DNA of 64,000 nucleotides from Gammaproteobacteria bacterium (GTDB taxonomy: Bacteria; Pseudomonadota; Gammaproteobacteria; UBA1113), in the NCBI GenBank assembly GCA_965230635.1, contig CBDDLJ010000022.1:86705-150704 (forward strand), given 5' to 3'. How positions within the stretch are numbered: the first letter of the stretch is position 1; each line of letters begins with the position of its first letter. Made by a program: the position numbers and the translations under genes. This document shows positions 21,915 to 43,914 of this stretch, in pieces. The notes beneath the pieces were generated by a model. It was not told where the DNA came from. It made no database searches and saw nothing but the letters and a program-made list of their open reading frames with translations.

Positions 21915-21958
21915 TATAGCAGTTTTCAATATTACTAAGCCGTTATAAGCGAGTATAA
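21915..21958. mobile_element. MITE half copy (left arm only)
   Basis: TATAGCAGTTTTCAATATTACTAAGCCGTTATAAGCGAGTATAA matches the first ~44 nt of the MITE, then similarity stops. Confidence 0.65.
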
Positions 21959-24071: not shown

Positions 24072-27000
24072 CTAATGGGCCTGTTTAGGGCAACCTGCAT
24101 TGTGAAATCCTGCTCCATTAGTGCCAATTTCCGAAGAACTTTCTATTATTACCTCACAATCTTGTGAAGAAGATAAATTTGCTGCCTGAGAATTAGAGAT
24201 TAAGCTATATTCAGGTAACAAACTTGCTGAATGATCGATACCTACATCATATTCATCAAATAAATCTTGCTTTATTCGTTTAATAGCCGATGACGCTAAT
24301 GATAAGCTGTTAACTTGTCCTGCTTCGATTACCATAATTTTATCTTGCTGTTCAACTAGAACAACATTATTTTTTAATAATTGCTTTATTATATAACGAC
24401 GACCTTTTGCATCGGTTTGTTCATAAATGGGGACGATTAAATAAGCAGGGATATCAATATCAGAGGATATATCAACGTTATCATGATGACTCTTAAGTAA
24501 TATCCCTTTTAAAAATAGTTTGATTTTCTCTGGCCACTTGGATAAGTGCGGAACTAAGCGACGAGCAAGTTGAGCGCGATCGCTTACAGTCATATCTTCA
24601 TACGCAAGCAATCTCAACATTGCATTTATTTTGATAAAATATTGAGTAGTATGCATAACTAAGCCAAGGGCAATTGTAATGCGAACTTCCTTATTCTCTT
24701 CTTCATTGTCGAGTAACGCCAATACCGTATCCATTTTATCAGAGTCTTGTGAGACACATAAAACTAAGTTCCTAGCAAGCAAAACACGAATCTCCTTCTC
24801 TACTTTTCTATTTTTGATTAAGGCCAAAACCTTATCCATTTTATTAGCAAGTGTGGCACGAATCTCTTTCTTTACTTGTCTGTTGAGCAGCTTCTTCGAC
24901 GTACTCATTTTCCTATAAACTCCAGAGCGATGCATGATTAAGCCACGAGCAAATGCGACACGAACGTGTTCATTCACTTGCTCATTTTCAAGTAACGCCA
25001 ATATCGTATCCACTTTTTTTTCACAACCCGGAAGAATATTTGCAGATAAATTATCGACAATATCGAGCAAATCCAAAAGATAACTTCGGATTGAATAGAA
25101 ATCAAAATGGGCTTCTTCAATGTCAAAGTTATCATGTATATATTCATTTACTTTCTGATTAGTCAGAAAATTCAAGATCACATCTAGTTTGTCAGAACTC
25201 ATAGGCATGCGCCTAATTAATTCATAGGCAAGCCGGATCCGGATACAGCTAAATACGTACTTGTCTGTCTTCTTATCAATAAGTAGCGCCCATATTGCAT
25301 CCACTTTATCATAATCCAGAGAAGTATATCTAGCCTGAGATATAGAATCAACTAAGCCAAGAGCAATCTTAATACGAACCTTTCCATTCATTTTATCATT
25401 TGCGAGCAACTTACATACTGCATCCACTTTCTCAAAGTCGCTAGAAATATGACTGACAAAATGATAAGCAAGCTTAGAACGAACATTCTCATTCACTCCT
25501 TCATCTTTGAGTAACATCCACACTATATCCTGTTTTTCACAGTGCTGGTATAAATACTTGGCTAAATTTTTAGCAAGCGCAATGCGAATATCCTTATTTA
25601 CTGCTTCGTTTTCAAAGAGCGCCAACACTGCATTCAGTTTGTCAGAAGCCTGAAATTTATCTAAGGCTAAGCAATTGGCGAGTGCAGCACGAACATCCTT
25701 ATTCACTGTTTGATTTTCAAGGAACGCTAAAACCACACCCATTTTGTCAGAGGCCTGGAGATTATCTAAGACTAAGCGACTAGCAAGCGCAGCACGAACA
25801 TTTTTATTTAATGCTTCGTTTTCAAGAAACACTAATATCGCATCCATTTCAAAAATTCGTGATATATGCGCAGCTAAACCACGAGCAAGCACAATGCGAA
25901 TATTCTCCTTCACTGCTTCCTTTTCGAGGAATGAAAACACTACATGGATATCCATTTTGTCAGAATCTTGCAGGATATGCTTAACTAAGCCATGAGCAAG
26001 TGTGAGGCGAGCCCTCTGACTCTCTTGCTCATTTGCAAGAAGTATCCATACTGCATCCACTGTGTTAGAGTTCTGGGAGAGATATGTGACCAAGCTAAAG
26101 GCAAGTGCGATACTATCATTTGTGTCTAGCACTCTGTCTCTGATTAATGAAAACACTGCATCTATTTTCTTTGAGTTCTCGGAGATATGCATGACTACAT
26201 CCCAGGCAAATGCAACACGAGACTTTTCAGCCACTTTCTCTTTTTTTAACGATAAAAAGACCTGATTCTTTCCCAGGATGCGCCTAACTAATACACAAGC
26301 AATCGTGATGCGAACTGCCTCATTCACTTCGTCATTTTTGATCAACGTCAGCATCGTATCTACTTTATCCGAATCCTGTGGAATATGCTGAGCTAAGCTA
26401 CGAGCACACATGATACGAGTCTTTCTATTTACCTGCTCATTTTTGATTAATGCTAACACTACATCCAGTTTGTCGGAATCCTGAAAGATACGCTTGATGA
26501 AATCATCGACAAGCTGATAACGAACCCGTCTACTCACTTGCTCATTTTTAATTAGCAATAAGATCTCATCCAGCAGTTTGCTAGAACATTGTAAAATTTG
26601 TGCGGCTAATTTACTAGCAAATGCGACACGAGTGTCCATATTCACTCCCTCATCTTTCATTAGCGCCAACGCTGTGTCCAATTTTCCAGAATCCAGAGAG
26701 AGGCACTTAGCGAAATTACAGACAAGCGCATAACGAACGCTCTCATCCAAATCCTCATTTTTGATTAACGCTAATACTGTATCCATTTTGTCAAAATCCT
26801 GTGAGATATATGCGCCTAAGCTCCAGGCAAAACTAACGCGAACAGATTTTTTCACTTTGTTATCTACAAGTAAAGTAGCAATACTATCGAATAGACATCT
26901 CTGTATTTGATAACAAGGTTTTAATATGTCTTGAAAACGCTCTTGTAACTTGTCAGGCATCGCATGTAGCTTTTTCAATCGCTGGTCAATAAAACGCATC

Positions 27001-30000
27001 AGAGATTGTTGCTTTCCTTCTAGTAATTCGATGCTGTTGTCTAGTGACAAACTGGCCTCAAGACAACGTATGAACAAATCTTCTTCAGCAACCCCCACCC
27101 AATCTCTTGGTGCTTGCAAGAGTAATTGAAAAAAAGTTTCTTGCGCATCCGGATATGGCTTTAACAACCCCGCTACAAAAGGCCAGACCAGGGTAAAATT
27201 TGGGTGATATTTGTAAGCTTTGATCACCTTACCGACAGATAGCTTTTGAGCCTCTGTCCCACAAGATAAATAATCTTTGATCACCCAGGCCGCTAAAAAT
27301 TCTTGAAATGACAAATGGAGAAACTCATAGGATTGTTGATTGTTTATCTCTTTTCCGATTTTTTTTAATAACCCTAATGTTTTCAAGTATTGTACCTTAA
27401 TGAAAGGTAGCCTATTCTCCGCTAACAATGTGGGGTTTTCTTCTGCACTTTCGATACCTTTTAACCAACGGATGGATAGTTGTGTGGTGTCTTGCCGTAA
27501 GCCTTCAAATGCCCAACAACCTAAGGTCTGTAATAATAGATTGATGACTGGATCTTTCAATATAATCACGTCATCTAATAGCGCATTCTCATCTAAACAA
27601 CCATCCCGCTCTAGATAGCGTCGACATACATTCACAATCAGCGATAAATACAGCTCACTTACCGATAATTGCGTCAACTCAACCTGCCTCTTGTGTCGAC
27701 AGGATGTTTGCCACCAGCTTTTTAATAAATACGCATTGATGGGAATGTGTGCTATCGACCACAGATCTTTGTTCTGTTTTAATTTTTCAATAAGCAGCGC
27801 TGGTTCTTCCGTATCTTTTAAATTATGTTTGAAAAATACGGAAACATCTTTTTCTGAAAACCCCTGGATCTCTATCAGTCCATCATAGCGCAACCACTGC
27901 TGTAAATTTGCTATTGCATACGGACGCGTTGTCACTAGCTTCTTAAACGGTAAGCGAAACAATTGAACCAGTAATTTATACCAAGCGCTACCTCTTGCAA
28001 ACGTTGGCAGTTCATCTAAACCCTCAATCATAAGCAAACAGTTAGCTGGTTTTTCTCGCAGTCTTGACAATATCTGCTTCGCCTCAGCGATAGATAATTC
28101 CAATTCACCCCAGCACGCACGACGTAGTAACTGCACGATATCCCATTCCTGGATATCTGGCCCCAATGTCTCTGGATGCAAACTGCGACAATGAATAATC
28201 AGCACCGCATCAAAATCTGACCATAATCCTGATATCCCTTGCTCTTGTTGCGCAAGCGCCCATTGGTAGGCGATATAATCACTCAATGTCGTCTTGCCAA
28301 CACCCGCAGCCCCCGACACCACCACCGTATTTACCGCCCCAGGCAGCATATCTTGCGTATCTTGATACTGTGCCGGCTTAAATATGTCAGATAATGCAAT
28401 CGCTGTCTTTTTGCCTTCAAGATCCCTATCGCGTTCTCGCAAAGGCCGAATTAATGGCTTGTTTTGATTGGTTGTAGACGCACTGGCTGACCGTTTCACT
28501 TCTTTTACTAGCTGAAGATTGACAAAATAATCGGCTAAGGAAAAATAATCCGTATCAAATAAGCGCTTTTTCACAAATGACGGCTGGGTATAATACGCCG
28601 CACACTGCGTCTGCCAACGTTGCAGCAAACGCTGCGGTGCCAACTGCGCCCACACTTGTTCAAAAACCGCCTGTATCTCCTGACATTGTAACACCATATC
28701 ACGCACCGTCTGGCCTTGACCGTTCGTCAAGGTTTCATCCGCCCCGTGCTGCAGCAATGCAATAAACACCTGTCGATAATCGTCTACATTGTGCCCATGT
28801 CCCAGCTGCCTTACTCGGGCAGCGAGATGCAAGGGAGTACACTGTGCTCTATCTAACGCATTCACTTCACCTTGAGTCGCCAAAAGCCTCACAATAGCCG
28901 CATTACCAAACTCCGCCGCTAAATGTAAACACGTTTTCCCATCCTCTCCAGCACTGAGCACCACCGTTGTCTTTGCTTGTAACTCAGTAAAAATTTCTAA
29001 CGGTGCATGACAAGCTGCAAGCTGCAACGGAAAATAGCCCGCAAGGTTGCGCTGATTGACGGCCGATGGAAAATACCTGAGTATGTCTTCATAACAGCCC
29101 CACTCATGGCAACCCGATACACACAATGCATGCAGTACCGTATCTCCTGCCGTATTGAGTGGACCCACCACTTCCATGCTTAATGGCTTAGTAGCCGCTA
29201 GTAAATCTGGTATCACCTTGCTGAATCCTTGCTGGCAAGCTAAATGTAAACACGTGTTGCCAGCACCATCGCAACCCGCCGTCGTTGCTCCATGAGCCAG
29301 CAATTGTCTACATAGCGCATCATCTCCCGATTGTATCGCCAGCATCAGGGGTGTCTTACCCCGGTAATGTGCCTGTAACTGCCACCGGTATTGTTGTTGG
29401 TTAAGCAAATAATCAATCAAATGAGGAGCCGGATACGTCGTGATAAAATAATGTAGCCATGTCTCCCCTTCAACATTGTTAGGTTTTTGCATACAGCGCA
29501 GCCCTGCATCTGTTGCAAAACCGGTGTCCGCTAACGTGTTCAGTAACCGCTCTATACAAGGAACTAGCGTTGGCGGACAAGGAGATTGGTCTTGTAAATG
29601 GACACAATACGCCGCCGCATAGCAATACAGCGCCCGCTCCGATGTCCCTGACGCGCTAAATCGCTCCGCAAGCTGCATTAATTCTAACGACAACCCTTGA
29701 CGACTTGACCTCAGTAACGCTGCTAGCTTATCTAATAACGTATCAATCGGAAATTGTGGATCAACTGATAAATGACCAAAAATGAAAATAGTCGAATTAT
29801 CAACCTGGCTATAACTCGCGAAGGGATGCGGTGCAGCAGCTGCTGCGCCAGCACCGCGTGAAACCGTGTCACTGCGGTGCACTACTAGCGGCTGAGTTTC
29901 CATTGTGCTAGCTGCAAGCACTGCTGTCTCTGCCTGGCCAGATAAAATTTCAACATCGACTTCATGTGGCGATATGATCGGCGCGACAGTCGCTTCAATG

Positions 30001-32474
30001 ACTCCAGCTGCAATTAACTCACCGATACGCCATTTATCCATTTGCGATTCCCAGCGCTCAAACAGGCCATGCTTAGTCGCCATATCACTCAAAAGCCCCA
30101 AGTGCTCTCGTAACATCGCCATTTTAATCCGCTTAGCCTCATCAATACCCTCTTTATGCGCAATAATTTTGCCGCGAGCCGCTGCCATGATACCAGCAAA
30201 CGTAAGTTTCACCGGACCAGCAGGATCGCTGCACGTCGGTAGCCGCCTAATCGCAGAAGTAAGCTCCTCACCCAGCGCAGCAATCACTTCACGGCCCCAA
30301 TAAGAAAGCTGCTTTGTGCTGCCATCTTTAACAAATTCCTGCATACACTGAAGAAATCCCCCTTTTTCCTCCGCTGGCAGTGTTGGATAACTCCTTAATA
30401 ACCGATACAACGCTTCATCATCGGGGTAACGTTGACGCCAGCCTTGCAATGCAATATTCGTGGGTGAATCAATCGTGATAACTCGTGGTTCATCCGCTAT
30501 CGTCTGCGTGACTTCACTCATCTTAAGCAACTTACGATCGGCCAGTGTGATTAGTGTGTTGATAAGCTCTGTCTGTAACGTACTGAGTTGCGGTTGTAAA
30601 GACAACAAATATTGCGCTGCAGTTAAACGCACCAATTGATGACTGGCCTCTGGCTGGTTTATTGACTGTTGGTAATAGTTGATTAATAACTGCACTGTCT
30701 TTTTCTGCAAGGTCGCTTTTGTCGCCGGCATCTCTATCCCTTGGATGGGCATATCATAAACTGCCATTAATGTGCGCATGACCCCCACTTGGGCATTGCT
30801 ATTTTTCAGCCATAACCGGCTTTTATCATTATCTTCAATTGGCAGTCTCAGGGACATCAACGCATTGTCCCACAATGAGTATTGCGGTAATACCTCGCCG
30901 ATAAAGTGTGCCTGCCATTTTTTTAACGCAGTAAAATAGGGCTGGTTGCAATGGCAGTAACGGTAGATTGTTCCAGCGTGTCGCCACAAATGTTGTAATA
31001 ATCCCACCGCTGCATTTATCGCACTACCGATGGAAGCATCTGGGTCACTCACTGCGCCTATAACAGCGTCACCAATACCCGCAGCCTGTAGCAACAAGGT
31101 ACCAGTGATTCTGGCATAGTGCGCGCGTTGTTGCCACGGCATTTCCTCCGCGGTAAAGTGCGTCAAACTCTCCAACGCATACTCAACGGTCGCACCGATA
31201 TCTATCCACTGACATTGCGCCACTTTATCTTCTGTCTGTGTGTCGATAGCTTGCAATCGGTGCTTTAAATTATGCAGCGCCGCTTTAATCGGGGCCAAGT
31301 GTAATGCCTGACTCACATGGATTACCTGTTTACTAATCATCGCAGCTAATGTTTGGTACAATGTATTGAGCACCAGGCACATCATCGCAATGTCCGGGGC
31401 ATGCAAGCCTTGCATTTGTTTTACTAACAATGACGTTATTTGTCTTAATTGCGTCTCCGTTAACTTGTCCTCTGCTTTCATCAGGCCTAGCTTAGTTACG
31501 GCAGATTCATCCAAAAAATCTAACGGGTTGTCAGCAATGAGCTTAAACAACTGCTTTATCAGTAGTTGCATGGTCTTATTACTTAAGCCTGCGCCCAATA
31601 AGATAACGCTCTGTTTTAGCGACGATTCACTTAATGTCATTTCATGTGCAATTATGTTATCCTGAATAATATCTTCAATGTCATGCAAGTGTTGTTTGGC
31701 CAGCTCATCCTCAGGATGTTGCAAGCAACGATGCTTTTGCAATTGATACGCCTGCACCAGCTTCTCCGTATTGGCAAATGGCACCACTGAAAATAATGCT
31801 GTTATCTTCGGTGTTAACTCTGGCGCTGCCGAGAGGGAAGCTGGGCCTATCTCGACTGGCTCATCCACAGAGCCGGCAGGAGTTGCGATAGAAGGTATCT
31901 GATTCACAGTAGTATTTGCCAACGGTGTTGATGCTGATTCCGACAATCCGGCTAAAATGGTTTGATATTTCTGAATCGCTGCATTGCGCTCTGTATCTGC
32001 CCAGTCTGTCATTTGATGACAAACAGCGATTAATTTTTCTAAACAATCGCGCATCGTTGGGATCAGCGCAGGTGCTTCTTGTTTTTTTAATTGCTTCCAA
32101 GCTTGCTGATAGGCAAAAAACTGACTATCCGCATCATGATGACTTGTCATCCCTTCCTCTATAAGACAACGTACTTTTGTCAACAAGGCTTTTTCTTCTG
32201 GTGACAGCAACGGCGGCAGTTTGTCTAGCGCAGTTTGATATTTTGCAATAACCGCATCACGTTCCGCATCATCCCAAGATGTTATCTGACGGCAAATAGT
32301 GATTAATTTTGTTAAACAGTCTCGCTGCCTAGCATAATACGCCGGATCATCCAGATGCTTCAATAGCTTCCAAGCACGGCCATAAACAATAAACTGACTC
32401 TTGGCGTTTGTCTTTTCGCTGGCTTGTGCCATATACTCATCTGCTTTTCTCACTTGTGCTGCAGTTGGTAACAT
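24072..32474 (-). CDS. giant NLR-like STAND protein, paralog A (2800 aa)
   Basis: One uninterrupted ORF. Domain order is: duplicated N-terminal helical module, ~800 aa unknown region, ankyrin repeats, NACHT NTPase, ~24 HEAT/ARM-like repeats, conserved C-terminal module. Ankyrin repeats lie at nt ~28700-29470 (GKTPLMLAIQSGDDALCRQLLAHGA, GNTCLHLACQQG, GKTCLHLAAEFGNAAIVRLLA, TPLHLAARV). NACHT motifs appear in canonical order: Walker A VVVSGAAGVGKTT (nt ~28290-28316), Walker B LLMIEGLDEL (~28008-28037), LVTTRP, IQGFSEKD, IPINAYLL, FLHLSFQEFLAA. Confidence 0.85.
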   Translation of the reverse strand: MLPTAAQVRKADEYMAQASEKTNAKSQFIVYGRAWKLLKHLDDPAYYARQRDCLTKLITICRQITSWDDAERDAVIAKYQTALDKLPPLLSPEEKALLTKVRCLIEEGMTSHHDADSQFFAYQQAWKQLKKQEAPALIPTMRDCLEKLIAVCHQMTDWADTERNAAIQKYQTILAGLSESASTPLANTTVNQIPSIATPAGSVDEPVEIGPASLSAAPELTPKITALFSVVPFANTEKLVQAYQLQKHRCLQHPEDELAKQHLHDIEDIIQDNIIAHEMTLSESSLKQSVILLGAGLSNKTMQLLIKQLFKLIADNPLDFLDESAVTKLGLMKAEDKLTETQLRQITSLLVKQMQGLHAPDIAMMCLVLNTLYQTLAAMISKQVIHVSQALHLAPIKAALHNLKHRLQAIDTQTEDKVAQCQWIDIGATVEYALESLTHFTAEEMPWQQRAHYARITGTLLLQAAGIGDAVIGAVSDPDASIGSAINAAVGLLQHLWRHAGTIYRYCHCNQPYFTALKKWQAHFIGEVLPQYSLWDNALMSLRLPIEDNDKSRLWLKNSNAQVGVMRTLMAVYDMPIQGIEMPATKATLQKKTVQLLINYYQQSINQPEASHQLVRLTAAQYLLSLQPQLSTLQTELINTLITLADRKLLKMSEVTQTIADEPRVITIDSPTNIALQGWRQRYPDDEALYRLLRSYPTLPAEEKGGFLQCMQEFVKDGSTKQLSYWGREVIAALGEELTSAIRRLPTCSDPAGPVKLTFAGIMAAARGKIIAHKEGIDEAKRIKMAMLREHLGLLSDMATKHGLFERWESQMDKWRIGELIAAGVIEATVAPIISPHEVDVEILSGQAETAVLAASTMETQPLVVHRSDTVSRGAGAAAAAPHPFASYSQVDNSTIFIFGHLSVDPQFPIDTLLDKLAALLRSSRQGLSLELMQLAERFSASGTSERALYCYAAAYCVHLQDQSPCPPTLVPCIERLLNTLADTGFATDAGLRCMQKPNNVEGETWLHYFITTYPAPHLIDYLLNQQQYRWQLQAHYRGKTPLMLAIQSGDDALCRQLLAHGATTAGCDGAGNTCLHLACQQGFSKVIPDLLAATKPLSMEVVGPLNTAGDTVLHALCVSGCHEWGCYEDILRYFPSAVNQRNLAGYFPLQLAACHAPLEIFTELQAKTTVVLSAGEDGKTCLHLAAEFGNAAIVRLLATQGEVNALDRAQCTPLHLAARVRQLGHGHNVDDYRQVFIALLQHGADETLTNGQGQTVRDMVLQCQEIQAVFEQVWAQLAPQRLLQRWQTQCAAYYTQPSFVKKRLFDTDYFSLADYFVNLQLVKEVKRSASASTTNQNKPLIRPLRERDRDLEGKKTAIALSDIFKPAQYQDTQDMLPGAVNTVVVSGAAGVGKTTLSDYIAYQWALAQQEQGISGLWSDFDAVLIIHCRSLHPETLGPDIQEWDIVQLLRRACWGELELSIAEAKQILSRLREKPANCLLMIEGLDELPTFARGSAWYKLLVQLFRLPFKKLVTTRPYAIANLQQWLRYDGLIEIQGFSEKDVSVFFKHNLKDTEEPALLIEKLKQNKDLWSIAHIPINAYLLKSWWQTSCRHKRQVELTQLSVSELYLSLIVNVCRRYLERDGCLDENALLDDVIILKDPVINLLLQTLGCWAFEGLRQDTTQLSIRWLKGIESAEENPTLLAENRLPFIKVQYLKTLGLLKKIGKEINNQQSYEFLHLSFQEFLAAWVIKDYLSCGTEAQKLSVGKVIKAYKYHPNFTLVWPFVAGLLKPYPDAQETFFQLLLQAPRDWVGVAEEDLFIRCLEASLSLDNSIELLEGKQQSLMRFIDQRLKKLHAMPDKLQERFQDILKPCYQIQRCLFDSIATLLVDNKVKKSVRVSFAWSLGAYISQDFDKMDTVLALIKNEDLDESVRYALVCNFAKCLSLDSGKLDTALALMKDEGVNMDTRVAFASKLAAQILQCSSKLLDEILLLIKNEQVSRRVRYQLVDDFIKRIFQDSDKLDVVLALIKNEQVNRKTRIMCARSLAQHIPQDSDKVDTMLTLIKNDEVNEAVRITIACVLVRRILGKNQVFLSLKKEKVAEKSRVAFAWDVVMHISENSKKIDAVFSLIRDRVLDTNDSIALAFSLVTYLSQNSNTVDAVWILLANEQESQRARLTLAHGLVKHILQDSDKMDIHVVFSFLEKEAVKENIRIVLARGLAAHISRIFEMDAILVFLENEALNKNVRAALASRLVLDNLQASDKMGVVLAFLENQTVNKDVRAALANCLALDKFQASDKLNAVLALFENEAVNKDIRIALAKNLAKYLYQHCEKQDIVWMLLKDEGVNENVRSKLAYHFVSHISSDFEKVDAVCKLLANDKMNGKVRIKIALGLVDSISQARYTSLDYDKVDAIWALLIDKKTDKYVFSCIRIRLAYELIRRMPMSSDKLDVILNFLTNQKVNEYIHDNFDIEEAHFDFYSIRSYLLDLLDIVDNLSANILPGCEKKVDTILALLENEQVNEHVRVAFARGLIMHRSGVYRKMSTSKKLLNRQVKKEIRATLANKMDKVLALIKNRKVEKEIRVLLARNLVLCVSQDSDKMDTVLALLDNEEENKEVRITIALGLVMHTTQYFIKINAMLRLLAYEDMTVSDRAQLARRLVPHLSKWPEKIKLFLKGILLKSHHDNVDISSDIDIPAYLIVPIYEQTDAKGRRYIIKQLLKNNVVLVEQQDKIMVIEAGQVNSLSLASSAIKRIKQDLFDEYDVGIDHSASLLPEYSLISNSQAANLSSSQDCEVIIESSSEIGTNGAGFHNAGCPKQAH
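24520..26890 (-). repeat. coding array of ~24 degenerate ~37-aa HEAT/ARM-like repeats in paralog A
   Basis: A recurring unit of the form DKMDTVLALIKNE.VN..VR.ALA..LA..I.QDS is visible by eye in the translation. Boundaries are approximate. Confidence 0.7.
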
Positions 32475-32549
32475 ACGCTGACTCCTTCAATGCCATCCTA
32501 CTAAGCGGACAATATATGCTCTGCGCCTCTTGCTATGTGTGCACACCTC

Positions 32550-32577
32550 ATACTACCAAACCAGTGGTCAATTGCAA
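32550..32577 (-). promoter_or_regulatory. candidate sigma-70 promoter of paralog A (duplicated upstream of paralog B)
   Basis: The minus strand reads TTGCAA-N16-TAGTAT, ~75 nt upstream of the ATG. The same block (TTGCAA-N17-TAGCAT) is conserved at 43886-43914. Confidence 0.4.
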
Positions 32578-32848
32578 AGAGGCGATAACAAAACAGCTTT
32601 TTGAATAAACGGCAGCTTAACAAAATAGCAAAAACATTGATTAACTACCTTAGTTTCTCACTACCAATACCCATTTCTTGCATAGAAAAAGTAAATATGA
32701 GCTATTTTTATACTGAAAATTTAAAATTGCTGATACATGGCTGCAGTAATGTTGACCGGCTTACTCGACACGCGCCCCTTAGATTTTTATGCTCTGCTCA
32801 ATAGGGCTGAGTCTTAAAAAAATCTTTTTGTTGATGCTATGAGGTGCG

Positions 32849-33166: not shown

Positions 33167-33189
33167 ATCTTTATCAAGTAATATGTCTA

Positions 33190-36100: not shown

Positions 36101-38200
36101 CCCCCTTATCGATATCCTCATCCTTCAACAAGTCCAGCGCCATATAGCTTCTCTTATCCGGAAACTGAGCAACGAAAGCCTTTGCCAGCTTAATGCGAGT
36201 CCAACTAGCATCCTTATCTTTTACCAAAGCCTTTGCCAGCTTAGCACGAGACCAAATAGCAACATCTTTATCTTTCACCAATGTCAGCACTAAATCGCAT
36301 GCCTTATTCACCTTATCTGGAAACTGAGGTAACCGAGCAACGAAAGCCTTTGCCAACCTGCCGCGAACCCATCCATCAACATCCTTATCTACCATCAAGG
36401 CCATTACTAAATCGCATGCCTTATTCACTTTATCTGAATACTGAGGCAACTGAGCAATGAAGTCTTTTGCCAGATCAGCACGATTCCAACGCTCAACATT
36501 CTTGTCTTTCAGAAAAGCCAATACCGCATCGTATCCTTTGTCTATCTTATTTGAAAACTGTGACAACTGTGCAATAAAGGCCTTAGCCAGCCAATATCGT
36601 AATCCATCTTTTATGTTCCCATTCTTCAACAAGGCTATTACCGTTTCACATCTCTCCTCCATTTTATTCGGAAACTTGAGTAACTGGGCAATAAAAATTA
36701 ACTCCATATCTATTCTATTCACCTTGTTCGAAAACTTGATTAACTGGTCTACAAAGGCCTCTACCAGTTCGGCACATGCCCTACTATCTAAGCCTTCATT
36801 CTTCAGCAAGGCGATCACTTCCTCAAACGCCCCTTCTTTTCCACTCAGCAAATTACCAATGTAGTAAACAACAATAAGCTTGCCAGGAACCTTGTTATCT
36901 ATGGCCTCATTTTTCACTAAGGCCAGCACCGCATCATGTATCTCCTCCATTTTATTTAGTAATATATTATGAAAGTCGGGAAACAGATCGACAACAAATG
37001 TTTTGGCCAGCTTGCAGCGATACCGCACATGGACATCCTTATTATTTAGCAGGGCCGTCAATTTATCGTATACCTCTTCCCATTTGTTCGGCAACAGTAC
37101 GAGTAACCGTGCGAAAAAGGCCTGTGCCAGCTTGTCATGGGTTTCATCATACTCATTCTTTAGCAAGATAATCACTGCTTCAAATACTTCTTCCCATTTA
37201 TTGAGCAACTGGGGCAACTGGAGAATATCAGTAACACAGAACCGAGCTATCGTAGCGCGATCCCGACTATCTACTTTCTTATTCTTCAGCAAAATCAGCA
37301 CAGCATTTAATGCTCCTTGCTCTTTATCTATCAACTGGGGTAACTGGGCAACGAAAACTTTAGCCAGCTTGTAGCGACCCCAACCCTCAGCATCCATAAC
37401 TCTCATCAAGGCAATCACTACTTCGCACGACTCATTTACTTTATCTGGCAACTGGAGTAACTGAGTGATAAAGGCCTTTGCTAGCTTGTAGCGAACCCAT
37501 CCACTAACATCCTTATCCTTTAGCAAAGCCAACACCGCATCTAATACCTCTCTTTTGTCTGGCAACTGGGGTAACTGAGCGACAAAGGCCTTTGCCAGCC
37601 TGCTGCGAACCCTTCCATCAGCATCCTTATCCTTTAGCAAAACCAGCAACGCATCTAACACTTCTCCTTTGTCTAGTAGCTGAGGTAACTGGGGTAACTG
37701 AACGACGAAGGCCTCTGCTAGCTTGTAACGAATACCGCAGACGATGTCCTTATCCTTCACCAAGGTCAGCATCATATCGCATCCCTCGCTCATCTTATCT
37801 GGAAACTGAGGTAACTGGGTAATAAAATGTTCAACCAGCTCGCAGCGAACCCTTCCATCGCCGTCCTCATGTTTAAACAAAGCCAGCACCTTATCACATC
37901 TTTCATTTATCTTATTAGGATACTGAGGTAACTGGGCCATGAAGGTCCTAGCCAGACTGCCGCGAGCCCATCTATCGATATCCTTATTCTTCAGCAAGTC
38001 TATTATTACATTGCAAGCCTCATTTATTTTATCTGGATACTGGGGCAAATAGACAACGACTGCTTCTGCCAGCTTAGCGCGAACTGTACCAGTTACTTTA
38101 TCATGTCTCAATATTGAGAGCACACCATCGAACACCTCTTTCCGTCCATTCTGCATCTTGGCAATAGCAGTCGTCGCTAGCATAGTGAGAACATTCCCTG
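33190..38200 (-). repeat. coding array of ~45 HEAT/ARM-like repeats with nested higher-order duplications
   Basis: 33541-33610 vs 33889-33958 match at 69/70 nt (348-bp unit). A ~441-bp unit is repeated around 35.33-36.21 kb. A ~330-bp block occurs at ~34.25-34.57 kb and again at ~36.9-37.24 kb. Confidence 0.8.
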
Positions 38201-38390
38201 GCAAACCCCTAGATTGAAGCATCATTAAAACTTCATCAACACAATAATGTAGAATAAGAGGACAGGATATGAATGACTTGACGAAATAATTTTGAGTATC
38301 ACTGCGTCTACATCTTAATTGCTTAATGCCGCGCAACAAGCGTTGTTGCATCGGACTTAGTTGGCTATTTGGCAATAAACTCGCCTCCAA
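33228..38390 (-). CDS. middle fragment of giant paralog B: ~45 HEAT/ARM-like repeats (1720 aa)
   Basis: The ORF is composed almost entirely of ~38-aa units of the form VLDAVLALLKDKDVDGWVR.KLAKAFVAQLPQ.PDK. The track start is TTG. The frame stays open upstream and aligns with paralog A (PRDWVG...CLEASL). Confidence 0.7.
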   Translation of the reverse strand: MEASLLPNSQLSPMQQRLLRGIKQLRCRRSDTQNYFVKSFISCPLILHYCVDEVLMMLQSRGLPGNVLTMLATTAIAKMQNGRKEVFDGVLSILRHDKVTGTVRAKLAEAVVVYLPQYPDKINEACNVIIDLLKNKDIDRWARGSLARTFMAQLPQYPNKINERCDKVLALFKHEDGDGRVRCELVEHFITQLPQFPDKMSEGCDMMLTLVKDKDIVCGIRYKLAEAFVVQLPQLPQLLDKGEVLDALLVLLKDKDADGRVRSRLAKAFVAQLPQLPDKREVLDAVLALLKDKDVSGWVRYKLAKAFITQLLQLPDKVNESCEVVIALMRVMDAEGWGRYKLAKVFVAQLPQLIDKEQGALNAVLILLKNKKVDSRDRATIARFCVTDILQLPQLLNKWEEVFEAVIILLKNEYDETHDKLAQAFFARLLVLLPNKWEEVYDKLTALLNNKDVHVRYRCKLAKTFVVDLFPDFHNILLNKMEEIHDAVLALVKNEAIDNKVPGKLIVVYYIGNLLSGKEGAFEEVIALLKNEGLDSRACAELVEAFVDQLIKFSNKVNRIDMELIFIAQLLKFPNKMEERCETVIALLKNGNIKDGLRYWLAKAFIAQLSQFSNKIDKGYDAVLAFLKDKNVERWNRADLAKDFIAQLPQYSDKVNKACDLVMALMVDKDVDGWVRGRLAKAFVARLPQFPDKVNKACDLVLTLVKDKDVAIWSRAKLAKALVKDKDASWTRIKLAKAFVAQFPDKRSYMALDLLKDEDIDKGVRCDLAEVFLAQLPDEGQGMLDTVLGLLKNKDVDGWVRCKLAKIFLTQLPQFPDKMTEGCNIVLILMRDKNIPRRACCKLTKAFVAQLPQLLGRGKGVFDLVLALLKDKDVDEWVRSRLAKAFVAQFPDKGSYMALDLLKDEDIDSGVRCELAEIFLTQLPDEGQGTLDAVLGLLKNKDIDGWVRCKLAKIFLTQLPQFPDKMREGCDIVLTLVKDKNIAWRACCKLAKAFVAQLPQLPDKGKGVFDLVLALLQDKEVDGWVRGSLAEGFFTQLPQFPDKVNGVCDVMLALLQDKDIDKGFRGGLAEAYVAQLPWFLDKVNEAYDAVLGLLKNANVDGWVRCKLAEGFLVQLPQLPQLPEKGKEVLDAVLALLKNKDVDWQACFKLAKIFVAQLPQLPEKGKGVLDAVLALLKDKEVDDRVRCRLTESFLAQLPQYPERATEVCDTVMNFLKDKDIDRWYRCIMTDAFVTQLSQLPDKEQGAINAVLALVKDKNVDVLVCTELAFWITGLLQLPQLLNKWEEVFEAVITLLKNEYDESRYRMVKAFVARLLVLLPNKREEVYDKLTALLKNKHIHAWYRCELAKRFVVDLFPGLHDILPNKMGEIHDAVLALMKNEAIDKKARCILTNAYVTKLPDREEKVFEAVITLLKDEDVDSRVRAELAMKFVAQLPSKVNERCDIAQAFVTQLLKFLNKKKQRFDTIIDLLKNSGVKGEVLCKLAKAFITQLPQYPDKVSEACDAVLALLKDKEVSGDILANLAEDFVTQLPLLPNKGGKVFDAVLACLKNKDVDSVVCYKLTESLVARLLQLLSKVEVFNIVITLLKNSGVKGEILCKLAKAFITQLPQYPDKVNEACDAVLALLKDKEVNGDILANLAEDFVTQLPLLPNKGEEVIDVVLACLKNKDVDGMIYCKLAEGLVAQLHLLPNKRGEMFDLALDLLKDGHIEGFFSCPAGKGYR

Positions 38391-38466
38391 ACAATGTATC
38401 AGTAATTCACCTTCAATTATCCCTACCCAATCCTTAGGTGCTTTTGTAAAAAGCTGTATAAAAAAC

Positions 38467-41400
38467 TCATTTAAAAACTTCTGGATCTCTCTTTAACAAT
38501 CCTGACACAAATGGCCAGACCAAAGTAAAGTTAGGGTGGTATTTATTGGTGTGAATGATTTGAGATATTAATGCTTTTTGTTCATCTGTTCCTTCTTTTA
38601 AACAACTCGCAATCACTCTTGCAGCTAAAAATTCCTGAAAGGTTAAATGAAGAAAACAATAATACTCTTGCCCATCAGACATTTTTTTGACTTGCTTTAT
38701 CAATCCCGATTGCTCTAAGGCTTCTATATCTATCTGAGCTAAATTTTCCTCCGTTAGTAACGTGTATTCCCCTGCCTGCGGAGTAACACCACCCAACCAG
38801 TGGGAGTTCAAATCTGTGGAATCCCGCACTAATCCTTCAAATGCCCACTGGCCTAACACCGTTAAAACAGCCTTCATATGTTCATCGTCAGTTACTCTCT
38901 TATTAAATTTCAATTCGGCTTTTTTTAACTCTCGCTCTTCCTCCCTATGAATGGATCGCCGACATAAATCTACTAATAGTGACTCATATAAATCACTCTG
39001 TGATAAGTCTGCTAATGTGGTTATATTTTGCTTGCTCTTCAGGCTTCTCCTCCAACGCTTAAGCAAATAGGCATTTATCGGTATATGAGCCATTTCCATA
39101 AAGTATTGACTCCTGTTTAATGCCTCAATGAATTCTTTTGTCTCTTTCGTATCGCCTAACACTTTTTTAAAATATACGGGAACATCCTCACTCCTAAACC
39201 CGCTTATCTCCACTAATTTCTCGTGATTTAACCATTGACGTAAATTATCAATCGCATAAGGCCGTGTTGTCACCAGCTTCTTAAATGGCAATCGAAACAA
39301 CTGCCTCAACAAACTGCGCCAATAAGACCTCATCTCCCCAGGTAACTCGTCCAACCCATCAAGCAACAATAGTGTCTTATCGGGTTTCTCTTGAAGTTTT
39401 TTCAGTAACGCCCTTGCATGATCCACTGATAAATTTAAATCTCTCCAACAAGCACACTGGACTAACTGTGCAATATCCCATTCTTTAATCTTTGGCCCTA
39501 GCTGCTTTGGATGTAACTCTCGGCACCGTACCATGAGCACGGCTTCAAATGCTGACCATACCCCTTTTTCCTTTGTTGCCCCCTCTTTGAATAGTGCCCA
39601 TTGATAGGCGATATAATCACTCAACGTCGTTTTACCTACTCCCGCTGCACCCGATACTAATACCGTATTAATTTCTTTAGATGCTTTTTCATGGGAACCT
39701 TGATAGGTATTTGAATCAAATAATTGAGACAGCTTGATTTCTTTCTTTTCACCGTCTAATCGATCACGCTCCCTTAGCGGTTTGTAAGATAGTTTATTTT
39801 GCTTGGATTGCGAGACATTGCTTGACTCTTCTTTTTTAACTACTCGAAGATTCACAAAATAATCTTTAAGCGAAAAATAATCTTTATCAAATAAGCGCTT
39901 GTTCACAAACGACGACTGCGTATAATACATCGTACACTCTGCCTGCCAACGTTGCAGCAAACGCTGCGGCGCCAATTGCGCCCACGCTTGTTCAAAAACC
40001 TCCTGTATTTCCTGATATTGTGACACCATATCACGCACCGTCTGGCCTTGACCGTTCCTCAAGGTTTCATCTGCCCCGTGCTGTAGCAATGCGATAAACA
40101 CCTGTCGATAATCCTCTGCATTGCGCCCCTTTCCCAGTTGCCGTCCTCGGGCAGCAAGTTGCAAGGGAGTACACTGCATCCCATCCAACGCATTCACCTC
40201 GCCCTGGGGTGCCAAAAGCTGCACAATAGCCGCATTGCCAAACTCCGCCGCTAAATGCAAACACGTTTTCCCATCCTCTCCAGCACTGAGCACTACTGTT
40301 GTCTTTATCTGTAACTCGGTAAAAATTTCTAACGGCGCATAACACGCTGCAAGCTGCAACGGAAAATAATCTGCAAGATTGCGCTGATTAACCGCCGATG
40401 GAAAGCGCCTGAGTATGTCCTCATAGCAACGCCACTCATCACAACCTGACACACACAATGCATGCAGTACTGTATCGCCCGCTGCATTGAGCGAACCCAC
40501 CACTTCCGTGCTTAATGGCTTAATAGCCGCTAGTAAATCTGATATCACCTTGCTGAATCCTTGCTGGCAAGCTAAATGTAAGCACGTGTTGCCAGTATCA
40601 TCGCAATCTGATATCGTTGCACCATGAGCCAGCAATTGTCTACATAGCGCATCATCCCCGGATTGTATCGCCAGCATCAGCGGTGTCTTACCCCGGTAAC
40701 GTGCCTGTAACTGCCACCGGTGTTGTTCTTGGTCAAGCAAATAATCAATCAAATGAAGAGCCGGATATGTCGCAATAAAATAATGTAACCACGTCTCCCC
40801 TTCTGCATTGTTAGGTTTTTGCATGCAGCGCAGCCTTGCATCCGGCGCAAAACCGATGTCCGCTAACGTATTCAGCAATCGCTCTATACAAGGAACAAGC
40901 CTTGGTGGGCAAAGGGATTGGTCTTGTAAATGGGCACAATACGCCGCTGCATAGCAATACAAAGCCCGTTCCGATGTACCTGATGTGTCAAATCGCTCCG
41001 CAAGCTGCATTAATTCCAACGACAACCCTTGACGACCTGATCTCAGTAACACTGCTAACTTATCTAATAACGAATCAATCGGAAATTGTGGATCAATCGA
41101 TAACTGACCAAAAATGAAAATAGTCGAGTTATCAGTGTGGCTATAACTCGCGAAGGGATTCGGCGCAACATCCGCTATCACAGCAGCTTTCGTATCAGTA
41201 CCCCGTGGAACCGAGTCACTGCAGTGCGCTACTAGCGGCTGAGTTTTTTTTGTTCTAGCCACAAGTGCTGCTGCATCTGCCTGGCCAGATAAAATTTCAA
41301 CATCGACTTCATTTGGCGATATGACCTCCGTGACGGTCGCTTCAATCATCCCAGCTGCAACTAAATCACCAATATGCCATTTATCCATCCGCGCTTCCCA

Positions 41401-43806
41401 GCGATCAAACAGGCCATGTTGAGTCGCCATGTCGTTCAGGATCCCCAAATGGTCTCGTAACATCGCCATTTTCACCCGTTTAGCCTCATCAATATCCTCT
41501 TTGTGCGCAATAATTCTGCCGCGGGCTGCTGCCATAATAGCAGCAGACGTAAACTTCGCCGGACCAGCAGAACCGCCACATGCCGGTAATCGCCGGATAG
41601 CAGAAACAAACTCTTCACCCAGCGCAGCAATCACTTCACGGCCCCAATAAGAAATCTTCTTTGTGCTGCCGTATTTAACAAATTCCTGCATACATAAAAG
41701 AAACCCGCCTTTTTCTGCCGCTGGCAGCGTTGGGTAACTCCTTAATAACCGATACAACTCTTCATCATCCGGATAACTCTGACGCCAACCTTGCAGCGCA
41801 ATATTTGTTTGTGAGTCAATGGTAATAACTCGCGCTTCATCTGCTGTCGTCTGCTCAGCCTGGATTGATTTGATCAACTCACGATCGGCCGATGTGATCA
41901 GTGTGTTGATATGCGCTGTCTGCAACGCGGTCAGTTGCGGCTGTAAAGACAACAAATGTTGCGCTGCAGTTAAGCGCACCAATTGATGGCTTTCCTCTGG
42001 CTGGTTTATTGACTGTTGGTAATAGTTAGTTAACAATTGCACTGTCTTTTTCTGCAAAGTCGCCCTTATCTTGGGCGCATCTATCCCTTGGATGGGTGCA
42101 TCATAAACCGCCATCAATGTGCGCATGACCCCCACTTGGGCATTGCTATTTTTCAGCCATAACCGGCTTTTATCGTTATCTTCAATTGGCAGTCTCAGAG
42201 ATTTCAGCGCATGGTCCCACAATGCGTGCTTAGGCAATACGTTTTTGACAAAATCCACCTGCCATTTTTTTAATGCAGCAAAATAAGACTGGCGGCAATG
42301 GCAGTAACGGTAGATTGTTTTACCACGCCGCCACAAACGGTACAATAATCCCGCCGCCGCATTTATAGCACCTCCCGCAGATACGGGGTTACCCACTGAC
42401 TCTACAACAGCACCACCCACACCCACGGCTTGTAGCAGTAAAGCGCCGGTGATTCTGGCGTAATGTGCACGCTGTTGCCACGGTGTTTTCTCCGTGGAAA
42501 AGCGCGTCAAACCATCCAACGCATACTTAATCGTCGCCTCGATATCTGCCCACTGAAGTTTCTCTACTGCATTATGTGACTTTGTGTCGACAGCATGCAA
42601 GCGGCGGTTTAAATTATACAACGCCGCTTTAATCGGCTTCAAATGCAATGCCTGACTTATATGGCTTACCTGTTTACTTATCATCGTCGCTAACGTTTGG
42701 TACAATGTATTGAGCACCAGACACGTCATGGCAATATCCGGAGCATGCAAACCTTGCATTTGCTGAACCAGCGATGACGTTATTTGTGTTAATTGTGTAT
42801 CCGTTAATTTGTCCCCTGCTTTCATCATACCCAGGTTGGTTGCGGTGAATTCATCTAAAAAATCTAACGGGTTATCCGCAATGAGCTCAAACAATTGGTT
42901 CATCAGTAATTGCATGGTCTTATCGATTAAGCCTGCACCCAATAAGACAACGCTCTGTTTCAGCGATGCTTGACTTAGTTTGATTTCATTTGCAATGATT
43001 TTATCCTGAATGATATCTTCAATGTCATGCAAGTGTTGTTTGGCCGACCCATCCTCAGGATGCTGCAAGCAACGTTCTTTTTGCAATTGGTAAGCCTGTA
43101 CCAGCTTTTCGGTATTGGCAAATGGCACCACCGAAAATAACTCGGTTATTTTTGGTGCTAGCCCTGGCATTGCCGAGGAAGAGGTCGGACCGGCTATGAC
43201 CGGCTGACTCGCTGCCGCTGCTGGGAGCAACGGGGTGGCAGGAGGGGCAGTTGCCAACGGCGTTGAGGCTGTTCCGGATAATCCCGCTAAAATAGTTCGA
43301 TATTTCTGAATCGCTTCATTGCGCTCTTCTTCTTCCCAATCTGCCATTTGGCGGCAAACAGCCATTAATTTTTCTAAACAATCGCGCATCGTTGGCATCA
43401 GCGCGGGCGACTTTTGTTTCTTTAATTGCTTCCAAGCCTGTTGATAGGCGAGAAACTGGCTATTCACATTGTCGCTTGTCATCCCCTTATCCATCAGACG
43501 ACGTACTTTTGTCAACAAGGCCTTTTCTTCTGCTGACAGCAGTGGCGGCAATTTGTCTAGCGCGGTTTGATATTTTGCAATCGCCGCATCACGTTCCGCA
43601 TCATCCCAAGATGTTATTTGGTGGCAAATAGTGATTAATTTTGTTAAACAGTCTCGCTGCCTAGCATAATACGCCGGATCATCCAGATGCTTCAATAGCT
43701 TCCAAGCACGACCATAAACAACAAACTGACCCTCGGCATTTGCCTTTTCGCTGGCTTGTGCCATATACTCATCTGCTTTTCTCACTTGTGTTACAGTTGG
43801 TAACAT
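38467..43806 (-). CDS. N-terminal fragment of giant paralog B: duplicated helical module, unknown region, ankyrin repeats, NACHT NTPase (1779 aa)
   Basis: By eye about 85-90% aa identity to paralog A over the N-terminal ~1300 aa, and lower across the NACHT. Walker A VLVSGAAGVGKTT lies at nt ~39627-39652 and Walker B LLLLDGLDEL at ~39341-39375. Also present are LVTTRP, ISGFRSED, IPINAYLL and FLHLTFQEFLAA. The fragment ends at a frameshift-created stop. Confidence 0.8.
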   Translation of the reverse strand: MLPTVTQVRKADEYMAQASEKANAEGQFVVYGRAWKLLKHLDDPAYYARQRDCLTKLITICHQITSWDDAERDAAIAKYQTALDKLPPLLSAEEKALLTKVRRLMDKGMTSDNVNSQFLAYQQAWKQLKKQKSPALMPTMRDCLEKLMAVCRQMADWEEEERNEAIQKYRTILAGLSGTASTPLATAPPATPLLPAAAASQPVIAGPTSSSAMPGLAPKITELFSVVPFANTEKLVQAYQLQKERCLQHPEDGSAKQHLHDIEDIIQDKIIANEIKLSQASLKQSVVLLGAGLIDKTMQLLMNQLFELIADNPLDFLDEFTATNLGMMKAGDKLTDTQLTQITSSLVQQMQGLHAPDIAMTCLVLNTLYQTLATMISKQVSHISQALHLKPIKAALYNLNRRLHAVDTKSHNAVEKLQWADIEATIKYALDGLTRFSTEKTPWQQRAHYARITGALLLQAVGVGGAVVESVGNPVSAGGAINAAAGLLYRLWRRGKTIYRYCHCRQSYFAALKKWQVDFVKNVLPKHALWDHALKSLRLPIEDNDKSRLWLKNSNAQVGVMRTLMAVYDAPIQGIDAPKIRATLQKKTVQLLTNYYQQSINQPEESHQLVRLTAAQHLLSLQPQLTALQTAHINTLITSADRELIKSIQAEQTTADEARVITIDSQTNIALQGWRQSYPDDEELYRLLRSYPTLPAAEKGGFLLCMQEFVKYGSTKKISYWGREVIAALGEEFVSAIRRLPACGGSAGPAKFTSAAIMAAARGRIIAHKEDIDEAKRVKMAMLRDHLGILNDMATQHGLFDRWEARMDKWHIGDLVAAGMIEATVTEVISPNEVDVEILSGQADAAALVARTKKTQPLVAHCSDSVPRGTDTKAAVIADVAPNPFASYSHTDNSTIFIFGQLSIDPQFPIDSLLDKLAVLLRSGRQGLSLELMQLAERFDTSGTSERALYCYAAAYCAHLQDQSLCPPRLVPCIERLLNTLADIGFAPDARLRCMQKPNNAEGETWLHYFIATYPALHLIDYLLDQEQHRWQLQARYRGKTPLMLAIQSGDDALCRQLLAHGATISDCDDTGNTCLHLACQQGFSKVISDLLAAIKPLSTEVVGSLNAAGDTVLHALCVSGCDEWRCYEDILRRFPSAVNQRNLADYFPLQLAACYAPLEIFTELQIKTTVVLSAGEDGKTCLHLAAEFGNAAIVQLLAPQGEVNALDGMQCTPLQLAARGRQLGKGRNAEDYRQVFIALLQHGADETLRNGQGQTVRDMVSQYQEIQEVFEQAWAQLAPQRLLQRWQAECTMYYTQSSFVNKRLFDKDYFSLKDYFVNLRVVKKEESSNVSQSKQNKLSYKPLRERDRLDGEKKEIKLSQLFDSNTYQGSHEKASKEINTVLVSGAAGVGKTTLSDYIAYQWALFKEGATKEKGVWSAFEAVLMVRCRELHPKQLGPKIKEWDIAQLVQCACWRDLNLSVDHARALLKKLQEKPDKTLLLLDGLDELPGEMRSYWRSLLRQLFRLPFKKLVTTRPYAIDNLRQWLNHEKLVEISGFRSEDVPVYFKKVLGDTKETKEFIEALNRSQYFMEMAHIPINAYLLKRWRRSLKSKQNITTLADLSQSDLYESLLVDLCRRSIHREEERELKKAELKFNKRVTDDEHMKAVLTVLGQWAFEGLVRDSTDLNSHWLGGVTPQAGEYTLLTEENLAQIDIEALEQSGLIKQVKKMSDGQEYYCFLHLTFQEFLAARVIASCLKEGTDEQKALISQIIHTNKYHPNFTLVWPFVSGLLKRDPEVFK

Positions 43807-43885
43807 ACGCTGCCCCTCTTCAACCCTACCCTACTAATAAGTGGATGATGTATGCGCTGCGCCTTTCGCTATGTGTACACCTATC

Positions 43886-43914
43886 ATGCTACCAAACCAA
43901 ATGGTCAATTGCAA
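43886..43914 (-). promoter_or_regulatory. candidate sigma-70 promoter of paralog B
   Basis: TTGCAA-N17-TAGCAT on the minus strand, lying within the ~130-bp upstream block shared with paralog A. Confidence 0.4.

Follow-up and report, generated by a model that had tools for sequence, protein, structure and literature searches.

We analysed 64,000 nucleotides (nt) of a Gammaproteobacteria bacterium (assembly GCA_965230635.1, contig CBDDLJ010000022.1, positions 86,705 to 150,704), hereafter the window. It contains two adjacent giant genes on the minus strand, here called A and B. Both encode, in the same order, two TPR-like helical modules, an all-alpha domain of ~600 amino acids (aa), ~7 ankyrin repeats, a NACHT NTPase, a long array of HEAT-like repeats and a small C-terminal module, Table 1. 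The original prediction had described this domain order and read it as an effector - NTPase - repeat-sensor logic, and both are supported here. A and B are predicted to belong to a lineage-specific, expanded family of bacterial NLR-related proteins within the NACHT clade of STANDs.

Gene A is intact and gene B is frameshifted

Gene A is a single unbroken open reading frame (ORF) of 2,800 aa (24072..32474) and is predicted to be functional. The span of gene B (32849-43806) is divided over three ORFs, each in a different frame. The size originally proposed for A thus stands, while the ~3,650 aa proposed for B are obtained only when two frameshifts are read through (3,652 aa). Three-frame translation places both breaks at runs of T in the coding strand. 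At the first, frame 1 ends in ...DPEVFK* and the next frame resumes as FLNEFFIQLFTKAPKDW, where the paralogs have P(K/E)VLN(D/E)F. At the second, the repeat consensus is picked up in the third frame (RVQLAKAIAEQLP). Judged from the reading frames, a one-base insertion in the T-run is the most likely explanation of either break.

A general sequencing or assembly artefact was ruled out as the cause of the frameshifts, because homopolymers of 8-10 bases elsewhere in the window stay in frame (in secA, proS, feoB, gene A and the 2,728-aa Tc gene described below). A sporadic error may have occurred at the two T-run sites of gene B. We interpret gene B as a probable recently inactivated copy, or possibly a phase-variable one. 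The inactivation is considered recent because the first fragment shows the same constraint as gene A (see below).

The two genes share a block of 4,742 nt with 81% identity (blastn), which begins ~124 nt upstream of each start codon and extends to the P-loop region. Scans for promoters and terminators were uninformative, with counts near those of shuffled sequence.

Table 1. Positions in the window of the domains of genes A and B, of the breaks in gene B and of the mobile-element remnants beside gene A.
Feature	Position	Strand	Evidence and remarks
Gene A 5' leader/promoter region	32475..32598	(-)	Copy upstream of gene B at 43807-43935
Gene A, two tandem ~90-aa helical (TPR-like) modules, aa 1-190	31905..32474	(-)	Internal BLASTP
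Gene A, all-alpha N-domain, aa 215-830 (~600 aa)	29985..31832	(-)	Occupies the effector slot
Gene A, ~7 ankyrin repeats, aa ~1003-1260	28695..29468	(-)	Pfam Ank_2 8.6e-23, Ank 1.6e-16
Gene A, NACHT module, aa 1291-1800	27072..28604	(-)	Pre-NACHT segment, nucleotide-binding domain (NBD) at aa 1383-1554, winged-helix domain (WHD) and helical domains
Gene A, 22 HEAT-like repeats, aa 1861-2645	24540..26894	(-)	Iterated repeat hidden Markov model (HMM); period ~35 aa
Gene A, C-terminal module, aa ~2646-2738	24261..24539	(-)	Common to the whole family
Gene A, Ser/Glu-rich tail, aa 2739-2800	24075..24260	(-)	Poorly conserved; 17-60% identity between paralogs
Gene B, fragment 1	38467..43806	(-)	1,779 aa; helical modules, N-domain, ankyrin repeats, NACHT; premature stop at end
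Gene B, frameshift 1	38473..38477	(-)	T5 run; inferred T4 -> T5 insertion
Gene B, middle ORF	33228..38390	(-)	1,720 aa; repeat array
Gene B, 43 HEAT-like repeats	33218..38138	(-)	Repeat HMM; period 39 aa; spans the middle ORF and frameshift 2
Gene B, frameshift 2	33257..33264	(-)	T8 run; inferred T7 -> T8 insertion
Gene B, fragment 3	32849..33217	(-)	C-terminal module and tail
Gene B, last ORF	32849..33166	(-)	105 aa
Eukaryotic-type protein kinase fragment	among 20563-20745, 21263-21847, 23876-23986	(+)	...DVYSLALVMWEI...
Tyrosine integrase, split into two ORFs	among 20563-20745, 21263-21847, 23876-23986	(+)	
IS3-like transposase, C-terminal fragment	among 20563-20745, 21263-21847, 23876-23986	(+)	

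The NACHT module resembles that of animal NLRs

The NACHT domain is found by Pfam (PF05729) with 63.8 bits in A (E=2.2e-17) and 71.4 bits in B, at a cutoff of 26.7. In both genes the motifs follow in canonical order: GAAGVGKT (Walker A, at aa 1388 in A and aa 1386 in B), (E/D)GLDE, TTRP, GFS/GFR, IPIN and FLHL(S/T)FQEFLAA. This agrees with the complete NACHT that had originally been claimed, with profile hit and motif order named as its check. The Walker B motif of gene B, LLLLDGLDE, is of the canonical D[GAS]hDE type. Gene A has LLMIEGLDE (MIEGLDEL), in which a glutamate replaces the Mg-coordinating aspartate. This residue, aa 1484 (window ~28023-28025), is an aspartate in the paralog consensus and in most paralogs, and the substitution may alter hydrolysis in A.

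Among solved structures the best match is NLRP3, with E=1.6e-13 for the single sequence and 3e-35 for the family profile. The profile also matches NLRP1 (1.6e-26), NOD2 (5e-23), NLRC4 (6e-10) and NAIP (1.5e-7). The NLRP3 alignment reaches into the pre-NACHT segment and covers TTRP, GFS and the FxHxxFQEFxAA winged-helix motif; at the WHD histidine, FLHLSFQEFLAA of gene A is aligned with FIHMTFQEFFAA of NLRP3. By sequence matches, as opposed to a phylogeny, the NACHT is thus closest to the animal NLRP/NOD proteins (NLRP3, NLRP1, NOD2; clade 12 of Kibby et al., 10.1101/2022.07.19.500537). In that study the mammalian NLRs share clade 12 with NACHTs from Rickettsiales, and A, B and their family may represent a second lineage of bacteria close to it. 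A and B differ from the animal proteins in having a HEAT-like sensor (helical, 35-39 aa) and not an LRR, and Pfam found no LRR, PYD, CARD or BIR in either of them. They also differ in location, lying in a bacterial chromosome between rhomboid/dciA/secA and proS.

The predicted sensor is a long array of divergent HEAT-like repeats

Downstream of the NACHT module both proteins carry tandem two-helix units with an L..LL.D.D..VR..(L/A)A signature, and the repeat HMM gives the motif ..D.VLALLKD.DVD..VR..LAKAFV.QLP for both arrays. Long arrays had been predicted and are present, but the repeat HMM counts 22 units in A and 43 in B instead of the 24 and 45 first proposed. At the nucleotide level Tandem Repeats Finder detects a 105-nt period in the array of gene A (25571-25849) and 117-nt periods in that of gene B. 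It also finds block duplications in gene B at 33338-33997 and 35302-36188 (348 nt x1.9 at 91% identity, 441 nt x2.0 at 90%). These duplications are recent, and the array is therefore still turning over.

The HEAT label needs some care. The Pfam model HEAT_2 stays below its threshold (17.1 bits, cutoff 27.7), and in hhalign comparisons of single units with canonical HEAT units no significant similarity was obtained. The A-sol_ELP1 profile matches the repeats with E=1.9e-12, with no individual stretch above threshold. Two observations make us keep the label, the repeat motif and the canonical HEAT arrays that distant relatives have in this position.

The array is followed by the C-terminal module of ~95 aa. 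As originally noted, it is shared by A and B (38% identity over 99 aa, E=2e-18). The last 60 aa of gene A contain 12 S/T, 8 D/E and 1 K/R. A membrane protein was considered for these genes and ruled out, as no segment has convincing transmembrane hydropathy.

The N-terminal half contains a new all-alpha domain

The first 190 residues of gene A hold the duplicated helical module that had been described before; the two copies (aa 23-86 and 114-177) are 53% identical (E=9e-23, internal BLASTP). One full-length paralog, P0005, has a single copy. The ankyrin repeats, originally put at 6-7, number ~7 when counted by eye in the translation, and Ank_2 matches those of gene B with E=9.6e-27.

Between these parts, ~800 aa had been reported to lack any motif. 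This region contains a definable domain of ~600 aa with remote homologues. An HMMER search with aa 1-1000 against 1.8 billion representative sequences returned only 10 clusters: the family itself, two distant NACHT fusions (P0028 and P0035), six stand-alone proteins of 683-832 aa from a few metagenomes, and one 306-aa fragment. P0028 has the order N-domain - NACHT - repeats - C-module, without ankyrin, and P0035 the order N-domain - Ank - NACHT - repeats - C-module. The stand-alone proteins and the fragment have no other Pfam domain above threshold. The residues P232, F233, Q288, D361 (in HAPD), R406, W520, D686, S724 and W726 are kept across the wider set of homologues.

An AlphaFold2 model of the N-domain based on 12 diverse sequences is all-helical and of moderate confidence, with a pLDDT of 62; a shallow alignment had given 39.9. 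A Foldseek search of the PDB with this model returned generic helical-solenoid noise (best E=0.1, TM-score <0.3). The profile of the domain matched no PDB sequence, and PHROGs contained no match to it. The domain is a new protein family without a fold relative.

One segment of ~45 aa in the N-domain, at aa ~450-500 of gene A (window ~30975-31127), is rich in Gly, Ala and Ser and moderately hydrophobic, a character shared by all homologues. It ranks first or nearly first in hydrophobicity within the N-domain of most homologues, and it is the least confident part of the AlphaFold2 model. It is compatible, as a speculation, with a helical hairpin that is either buried or membrane-inserting.

Taken together, the proteins appear to be built on a conserved chassis made of the NACHT with its winged-helix and helical domains, a hypervariable HEAT-like solenoid and the small C-terminal cap module. 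In the giant branch the predicted output slot in front of this chassis has 1,290 aa and holds the two TPR-like modules, the novel ~600-aa all-alpha domain and seven ankyrin repeats.

The giant genes are one branch of a larger family

Full-length relatives are very rare, with five others among 5.8 billion proteins. One of them, P0005, shares the 164,610-bp contig of the window, and P0004 is on a separate contig. P0002 and P0003 are arranged in tandem on the metagenome contig L001, and both of these genes are A-like over their entire length. There is therefore no fixed partnership of A and B, though tandem duplication recurs. A functional sensor/helper pair was ruled out, given the two A-like genes in this contig and the broken gene B. 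The special pair of the original prediction hence becomes the giant branch of a much larger paralogous family. Near the NACHT genes of L001 we observed a 478-aa Schlafen/AlbA_2 - HATPase_c_4 - Fic-like_C protein (24317-25753, minus strand). It is the only neighbour on that contig that touches the PADLOC models, with a partial match to pAgo-associated models (E=3.7e-19), and is a weak hint of a defence context.

A profile search with the NACHT module identified at least 12 short paralogs of 1,130-1,358 aa, whose NACHT is 58-60% identical to that of gene A. In these proteins a short N-terminus precedes the NACHT, which is followed by ~16 repeats of 39 aa and then by the C-terminal module of the giants; this module also occurs in P0028 and P0035. 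Two of them are located on the window's own contig; others are in tandem and adjoin insertion sequence (IS) fragments. Truncated paralog fragments of 340-789 aa (P0010 to P0013) were found as well. The giant genes are thus one branch of a large family on a common chassis. The alignment of the family had no match among the GTDB representatives, and none of the named Legionellales representatives searched has it. No relatives were found in viral contigs.

More distant relatives come from uncultured bacteria (L058, L061, L062, L065, L066, P0014, P0051 and P0052), on bacterial contigs with LptD and FtsH as neighbours. They have the same NACHT subtype (24-29% identity, with the motifs IAHIPIN and FxHxSFQE), which is followed by a HEAT array. 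Their architectures are Trypsin_2 - NACHT - HEAT (L061), Lipase_3 - NACHT (- HEAT) (L058 and L066), TIR_2 - NACHT (P0014), TPR - NACHT - HEAT (L062), NACHT - HEAT - Ank (L059) and NACHT - HEAT (L065 and P0052). By eye, the end of P0051 seems to hold a similar small C-terminal module. Two differences set these proteins apart from A and B: their HEAT repeats form canonical arrays, with Pfam E-values down to 1e-102 (HEAT_2 up to E=9e-102), and the N-terminus is Trypsin_2, Lipase_3, TIR_2 or TPR instead of the N-domain with ankyrin repeats.

The original statement that the architecture matches no described bacterial family did not hold up, as these trypsin-, lipase- and TIR-NACHT-HEAT proteins of Gram-negative bacteria are relatives and bacterial NACHT proteins with HEAT and ankyrin repeats are known (10.1101/2022.07.19.500537).

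The two halves of the genes have different histories

Among the six giant proteins, the identity is 75-97% in aa 1-1290, 58-83% in the NACHT NBD, 44-81% in the WHD/helical part and 24-57% in the repeats. The paralogs had been described as diverging, and this divergence is concentrated in the sensor half. The ratio of nonsynonymous to synonymous substitution rates (dN/dS) is 0.14-0.30 in the N-terminal half and the NACHT and 0.38-0.44 in the repeats. It is 0.15-0.44 in all regions when gene A is compared with its relatives, and 0.14-0.42 when gene B fragment 1 is compared with gene A. Therefore the genes are under purifying selection, which is loosest, or most diversifying, in the sensor.

The synonymous divergence (dS) between A and B is 0.26-0.55 in the N-terminal half and exceeds 2.3 in the NACHT. 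Given this difference and the 81%-identical DNA block, the N-terminal half has therefore been exchanged or homogenised between old paralogs. In gene B it appears to have been homogenised with A by recombination, with an ancient divergence retained in the NACHT and sensor half. The G+C content (GC) is 46-49% in the 5' halves of both genes (windows 28000-32000 and 40000-44000) against a background of 37-39%, and the repeats at the 3' end of gene A are at background. The raised GC suggests a foreign or separately evolving origin of the N-terminal half.

Chromosomal setting

The SecA protein encoded in the window shows 73% identity to the SecA of a Legionellales metagenome-assembled genome and 62% to the one of Legionella maceachernii. 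By SecA we therefore place the host in the Legionellales, at the level of the order. The flanks of the locus are ordinary chromosome, with secA, dciA and a rhomboid gene on one side and proS, a response regulator with Hpt, and feoB on the other.

The region between the rhomboid gene and gene A is scarred, as had been described. It contains the kinase, integrase and IS3-like remnants of Table 1, a protease ORF and a MITE-like element (miniature inverted-repeat transposable element). The latter is ~165 bp long with perfect 36-nt terminal inverted repeats and was found in the window as a whole in two full copies (1460-1624 and 20384-20550) and as a solo arm (21914-21958), with a chance expectation of zero. 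The protease ORF (22331-23716, plus strand) is convergent with gene A and encodes a 461-aa phage-type chymotrypsin-fold serine protease, with a match to PHROG protease family 20754 (E=1e-44), a GDSG motif and weak PDB matches to alpha-lytic and Glu-specific proteases. The distant NACHT relative L061 has a trypsin-like domain fused to its N-terminus; the presence of a protease ORF beside gene A is possibly a coincidence.

A Tc toxin-complex locus is located 8 kb past gene B. It comprises a 2,728-aa TcB/TcC-type fusion with SpvB, TcdB middle domains and RHS repeat (51813-59999, minus strand) and a 1,266-aa protein with the TcA C-terminal TcB-binding domain (60141-63941, minus strand). Toxins of this kind act on eukaryotes, frequently on insects. 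Between feoB and the Tc genes there is a seemingly intact 436-aa DDE transposase (DUF772 + DDE_Tnp_1; 50446-51756, minus strand).

Possible function of the family

The original prediction had left open whether the proteins are immune sensors or secreted NLR mimics. The reading we put first, with confidence that is evenly balanced, is that A and B are ligand-gated STAND conflict sensors that work inside the Legionellales bacterium. Here NTP hydrolysis, ligand binding, oligomerisation and output are taken over from the established behaviour of NLR/STAND proteins. By this analogy, the repeat array would keep the NACHT in a closed, ADP-bound state and would bind a ligand of phage, mobile-element or host origin. 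Binding would lead to nucleotide exchange and oligomerisation, and the clustering of the N-terminal domains would then produce the output. For the output we can offer a low-confidence guess, namely that the all-alpha domain is membrane-directed or protein-scaffolding and serves an intrabacterial conflict or abortive-infection response.

We favour the conflict sensor because of the effector types in the relatives and the design as a switch plus a sensor. The Trypsin_2, Lipase_3 and TIR_2 domains in the N-terminal slot of the relatives are effector classes typical of bacterial conflict systems, and these effector types also make us favour an immune sensor over a secreted mimic. The setting in a mobile-element-scarred island counts for it too. 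According to Kibby et al. (10.1101/2022.07.19.500537), NACHT proteins of bacteria act against phages and have HEAT, LRR or TPR sensors. A and B resemble these bNACHT proteins in the tripartite layout with an N-terminal output region, a central NACHT and, at the C-terminus, a repeat sensor that diversifies fast in both. The D[GAS]hDE-type Walker B of bNACHT proteins is present in B, while A has Glu in place of the first Asp; HEAT and ankyrin repeats are both among the bacterial architectures named there. They differ in the N-terminal 1,290 aa with a domain lacking a known relative, and their size of 2,800-3,650 aa and at least 15 paralogs are unusual.

Several observations weigh against a conflict sensor. 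In a further difference from bNACHT proteins, the PADLOC defence models do not match the NACHT of A or B, and their matches are confined to the ankyrin region and a P-loop fragment (PDC-S73, E=9e-5). No canonical defence genes adjoin the locus in the window. Pfam, PDB profile, Foldseek and PHROGs searches of A and B gave no recognisable effector, toxic or enzymatic, and the short paralogs are without an evident effector domain. The best named matches of both the ankyrin repeats and the NACHT are in animals, and those of the NACHT are all metazoan (sponge NACHT proteins, fish NLRP3-like proteins and primate NLRP13). The Legionellales lineage is intracellular and known for secreted eukaryote-like proteins, and at least 15 paralogs are more than would usually be expected of a defence gene in a genome of this kind.

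The last of these points lead to the main competitor, which we rate as possible and clearly less probable than a conflict sensor. A and B could be eukaryote-like effectors, translocated by Dot/Icm or another system, that bind, mimic or hijack the signalling or membrane machinery of the host, the paralog expansion reflecting an arms race with host targets. SecA places the organism in the right order, the best matches of the ankyrin repeats are eukaryotic ANK2 and ANKRD17, and the NACHT, whose named matches are exclusively metazoan, has NLRP3 as its closest solved structure. The N-domain also occurs alone in proteins of ~770 aa without a known domain, typical of effectors, the C-terminal tail is rich in Ser and Glu, and genes for a eukaryote-targeting Tc toxin are 8 kb away. 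Legionellales characteristically encode Dot/Icm, and in another symbiont of this order, Ca. Centrionella, NACHT/NLR and ANK/ARM appear in the domain key of the figure of predicted Dot/Icm effectors (10.64898/2026.04.11.717937). That organism likewise has expanded families of large multidomain proteins with ankyrin repeats and ATPases; the resemblance is at the level of description, and the architecture of A and B is not described in that preprint. On the other side, the window is without dot/icm genes, TIR, lipase or protease modules are found in close bacterial relatives of the chassis, as in conflict systems, and a ligand-gated NTPase switch with a hypervariable sensor is an unusual design for an effector. 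Type IV substrates of 2,800-3,650 aa would be extraordinarily large, and NLRP-type pathways are not known from the typical hosts of Legionellales (amoebae, arthropods).

Two further explanations have to be weighed. The proteins could be non-immune signalling STANDs that sense a host or environment molecule in the bacterium and act as scaffolds or regulators, for instance in intracellular life-stage transitions, with the ankyrin and all-alpha parts as interaction platforms. The absence of a detectable catalytic or toxic domain in the 1,290-aa N-terminus, the nature of the TPR-like, ankyrin and solenoid parts as interaction modules and the purifying selection on the N-terminal half are in line with this, and some STAND proteins, e.g. 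MalT and AfsR, are regulators. We nevertheless consider it quite improbable, with no DNA-binding or output domain and no occurrence in any named Legionellales representative searched; paralog expansion, repeat turnover and mobile-element association are marks of conflict genes and not of housekeeping regulators. Still less credit is given to a decaying relic, i.e. both genes as leftovers of a horizontally acquired element under loss, with the frameshifts of gene B as visible decay. These two frameshifts, the truncated paralog fragments, the broken kinase, integrase and IS genes in the flanks and the raised GC of the 5' halves fit such an origin. However, gene A is intact over 8.4 kb, which is very unlikely without selection, and the dN/dS values show that A is constrained in all regions and that B was so until recently. 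The other long genes of the window, with their runs of 8-10 bases, are also intact.

Implications

As bacterial NLR-related NACHT proteins with HEAT-type sensors, the architecture of A and B is known. What is new is the giant N-terminal extension with the ~600-aa domain, the divergent 35-39-aa HEAT-like repeat and the conserved C-terminal cap, together with the size of the expansion and the occurrence in Legionellales with an NLRP-like NACHT.

A bolder reading, which we regard as unlikely, has at least 15 NLR-like receptors with an NLRP/NOD-clade NACHT in a Legionellales bacterium, which would be the second intracellular bacterial lineage with such genes after Rickettsiales. The giants would fire the ~600-aa all-alpha domain as a new executioner, whose conserved Gly/Ala-rich hydrophobic hairpin would insert into membranes on oligomerisation like CC-NLR resistosomes, HeLo and MLKL. 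If true, NLRP/NOD-clade NACHTs in Legionellales bear directly on the origin of animal NLRs. Animal and fungal NLRs have been proposed to descend from bacterial NACHT proteins, and to date Rickettsiales are the only bacteria linked to the animal clade. With an expanded, actively recombining NLRP-like family in another order of intracellular bacteria, the direction and timing of NLR transfer could be tested on new material.

The natural series from short chassis-only proteins to the giants and on to N-domain-only proteins could be used to separate sensor from output functions. If the N-domain is the output module, it would represent a new kind of effector in STAND immunity; the alternative would be a novel class of effectors directed at the host.

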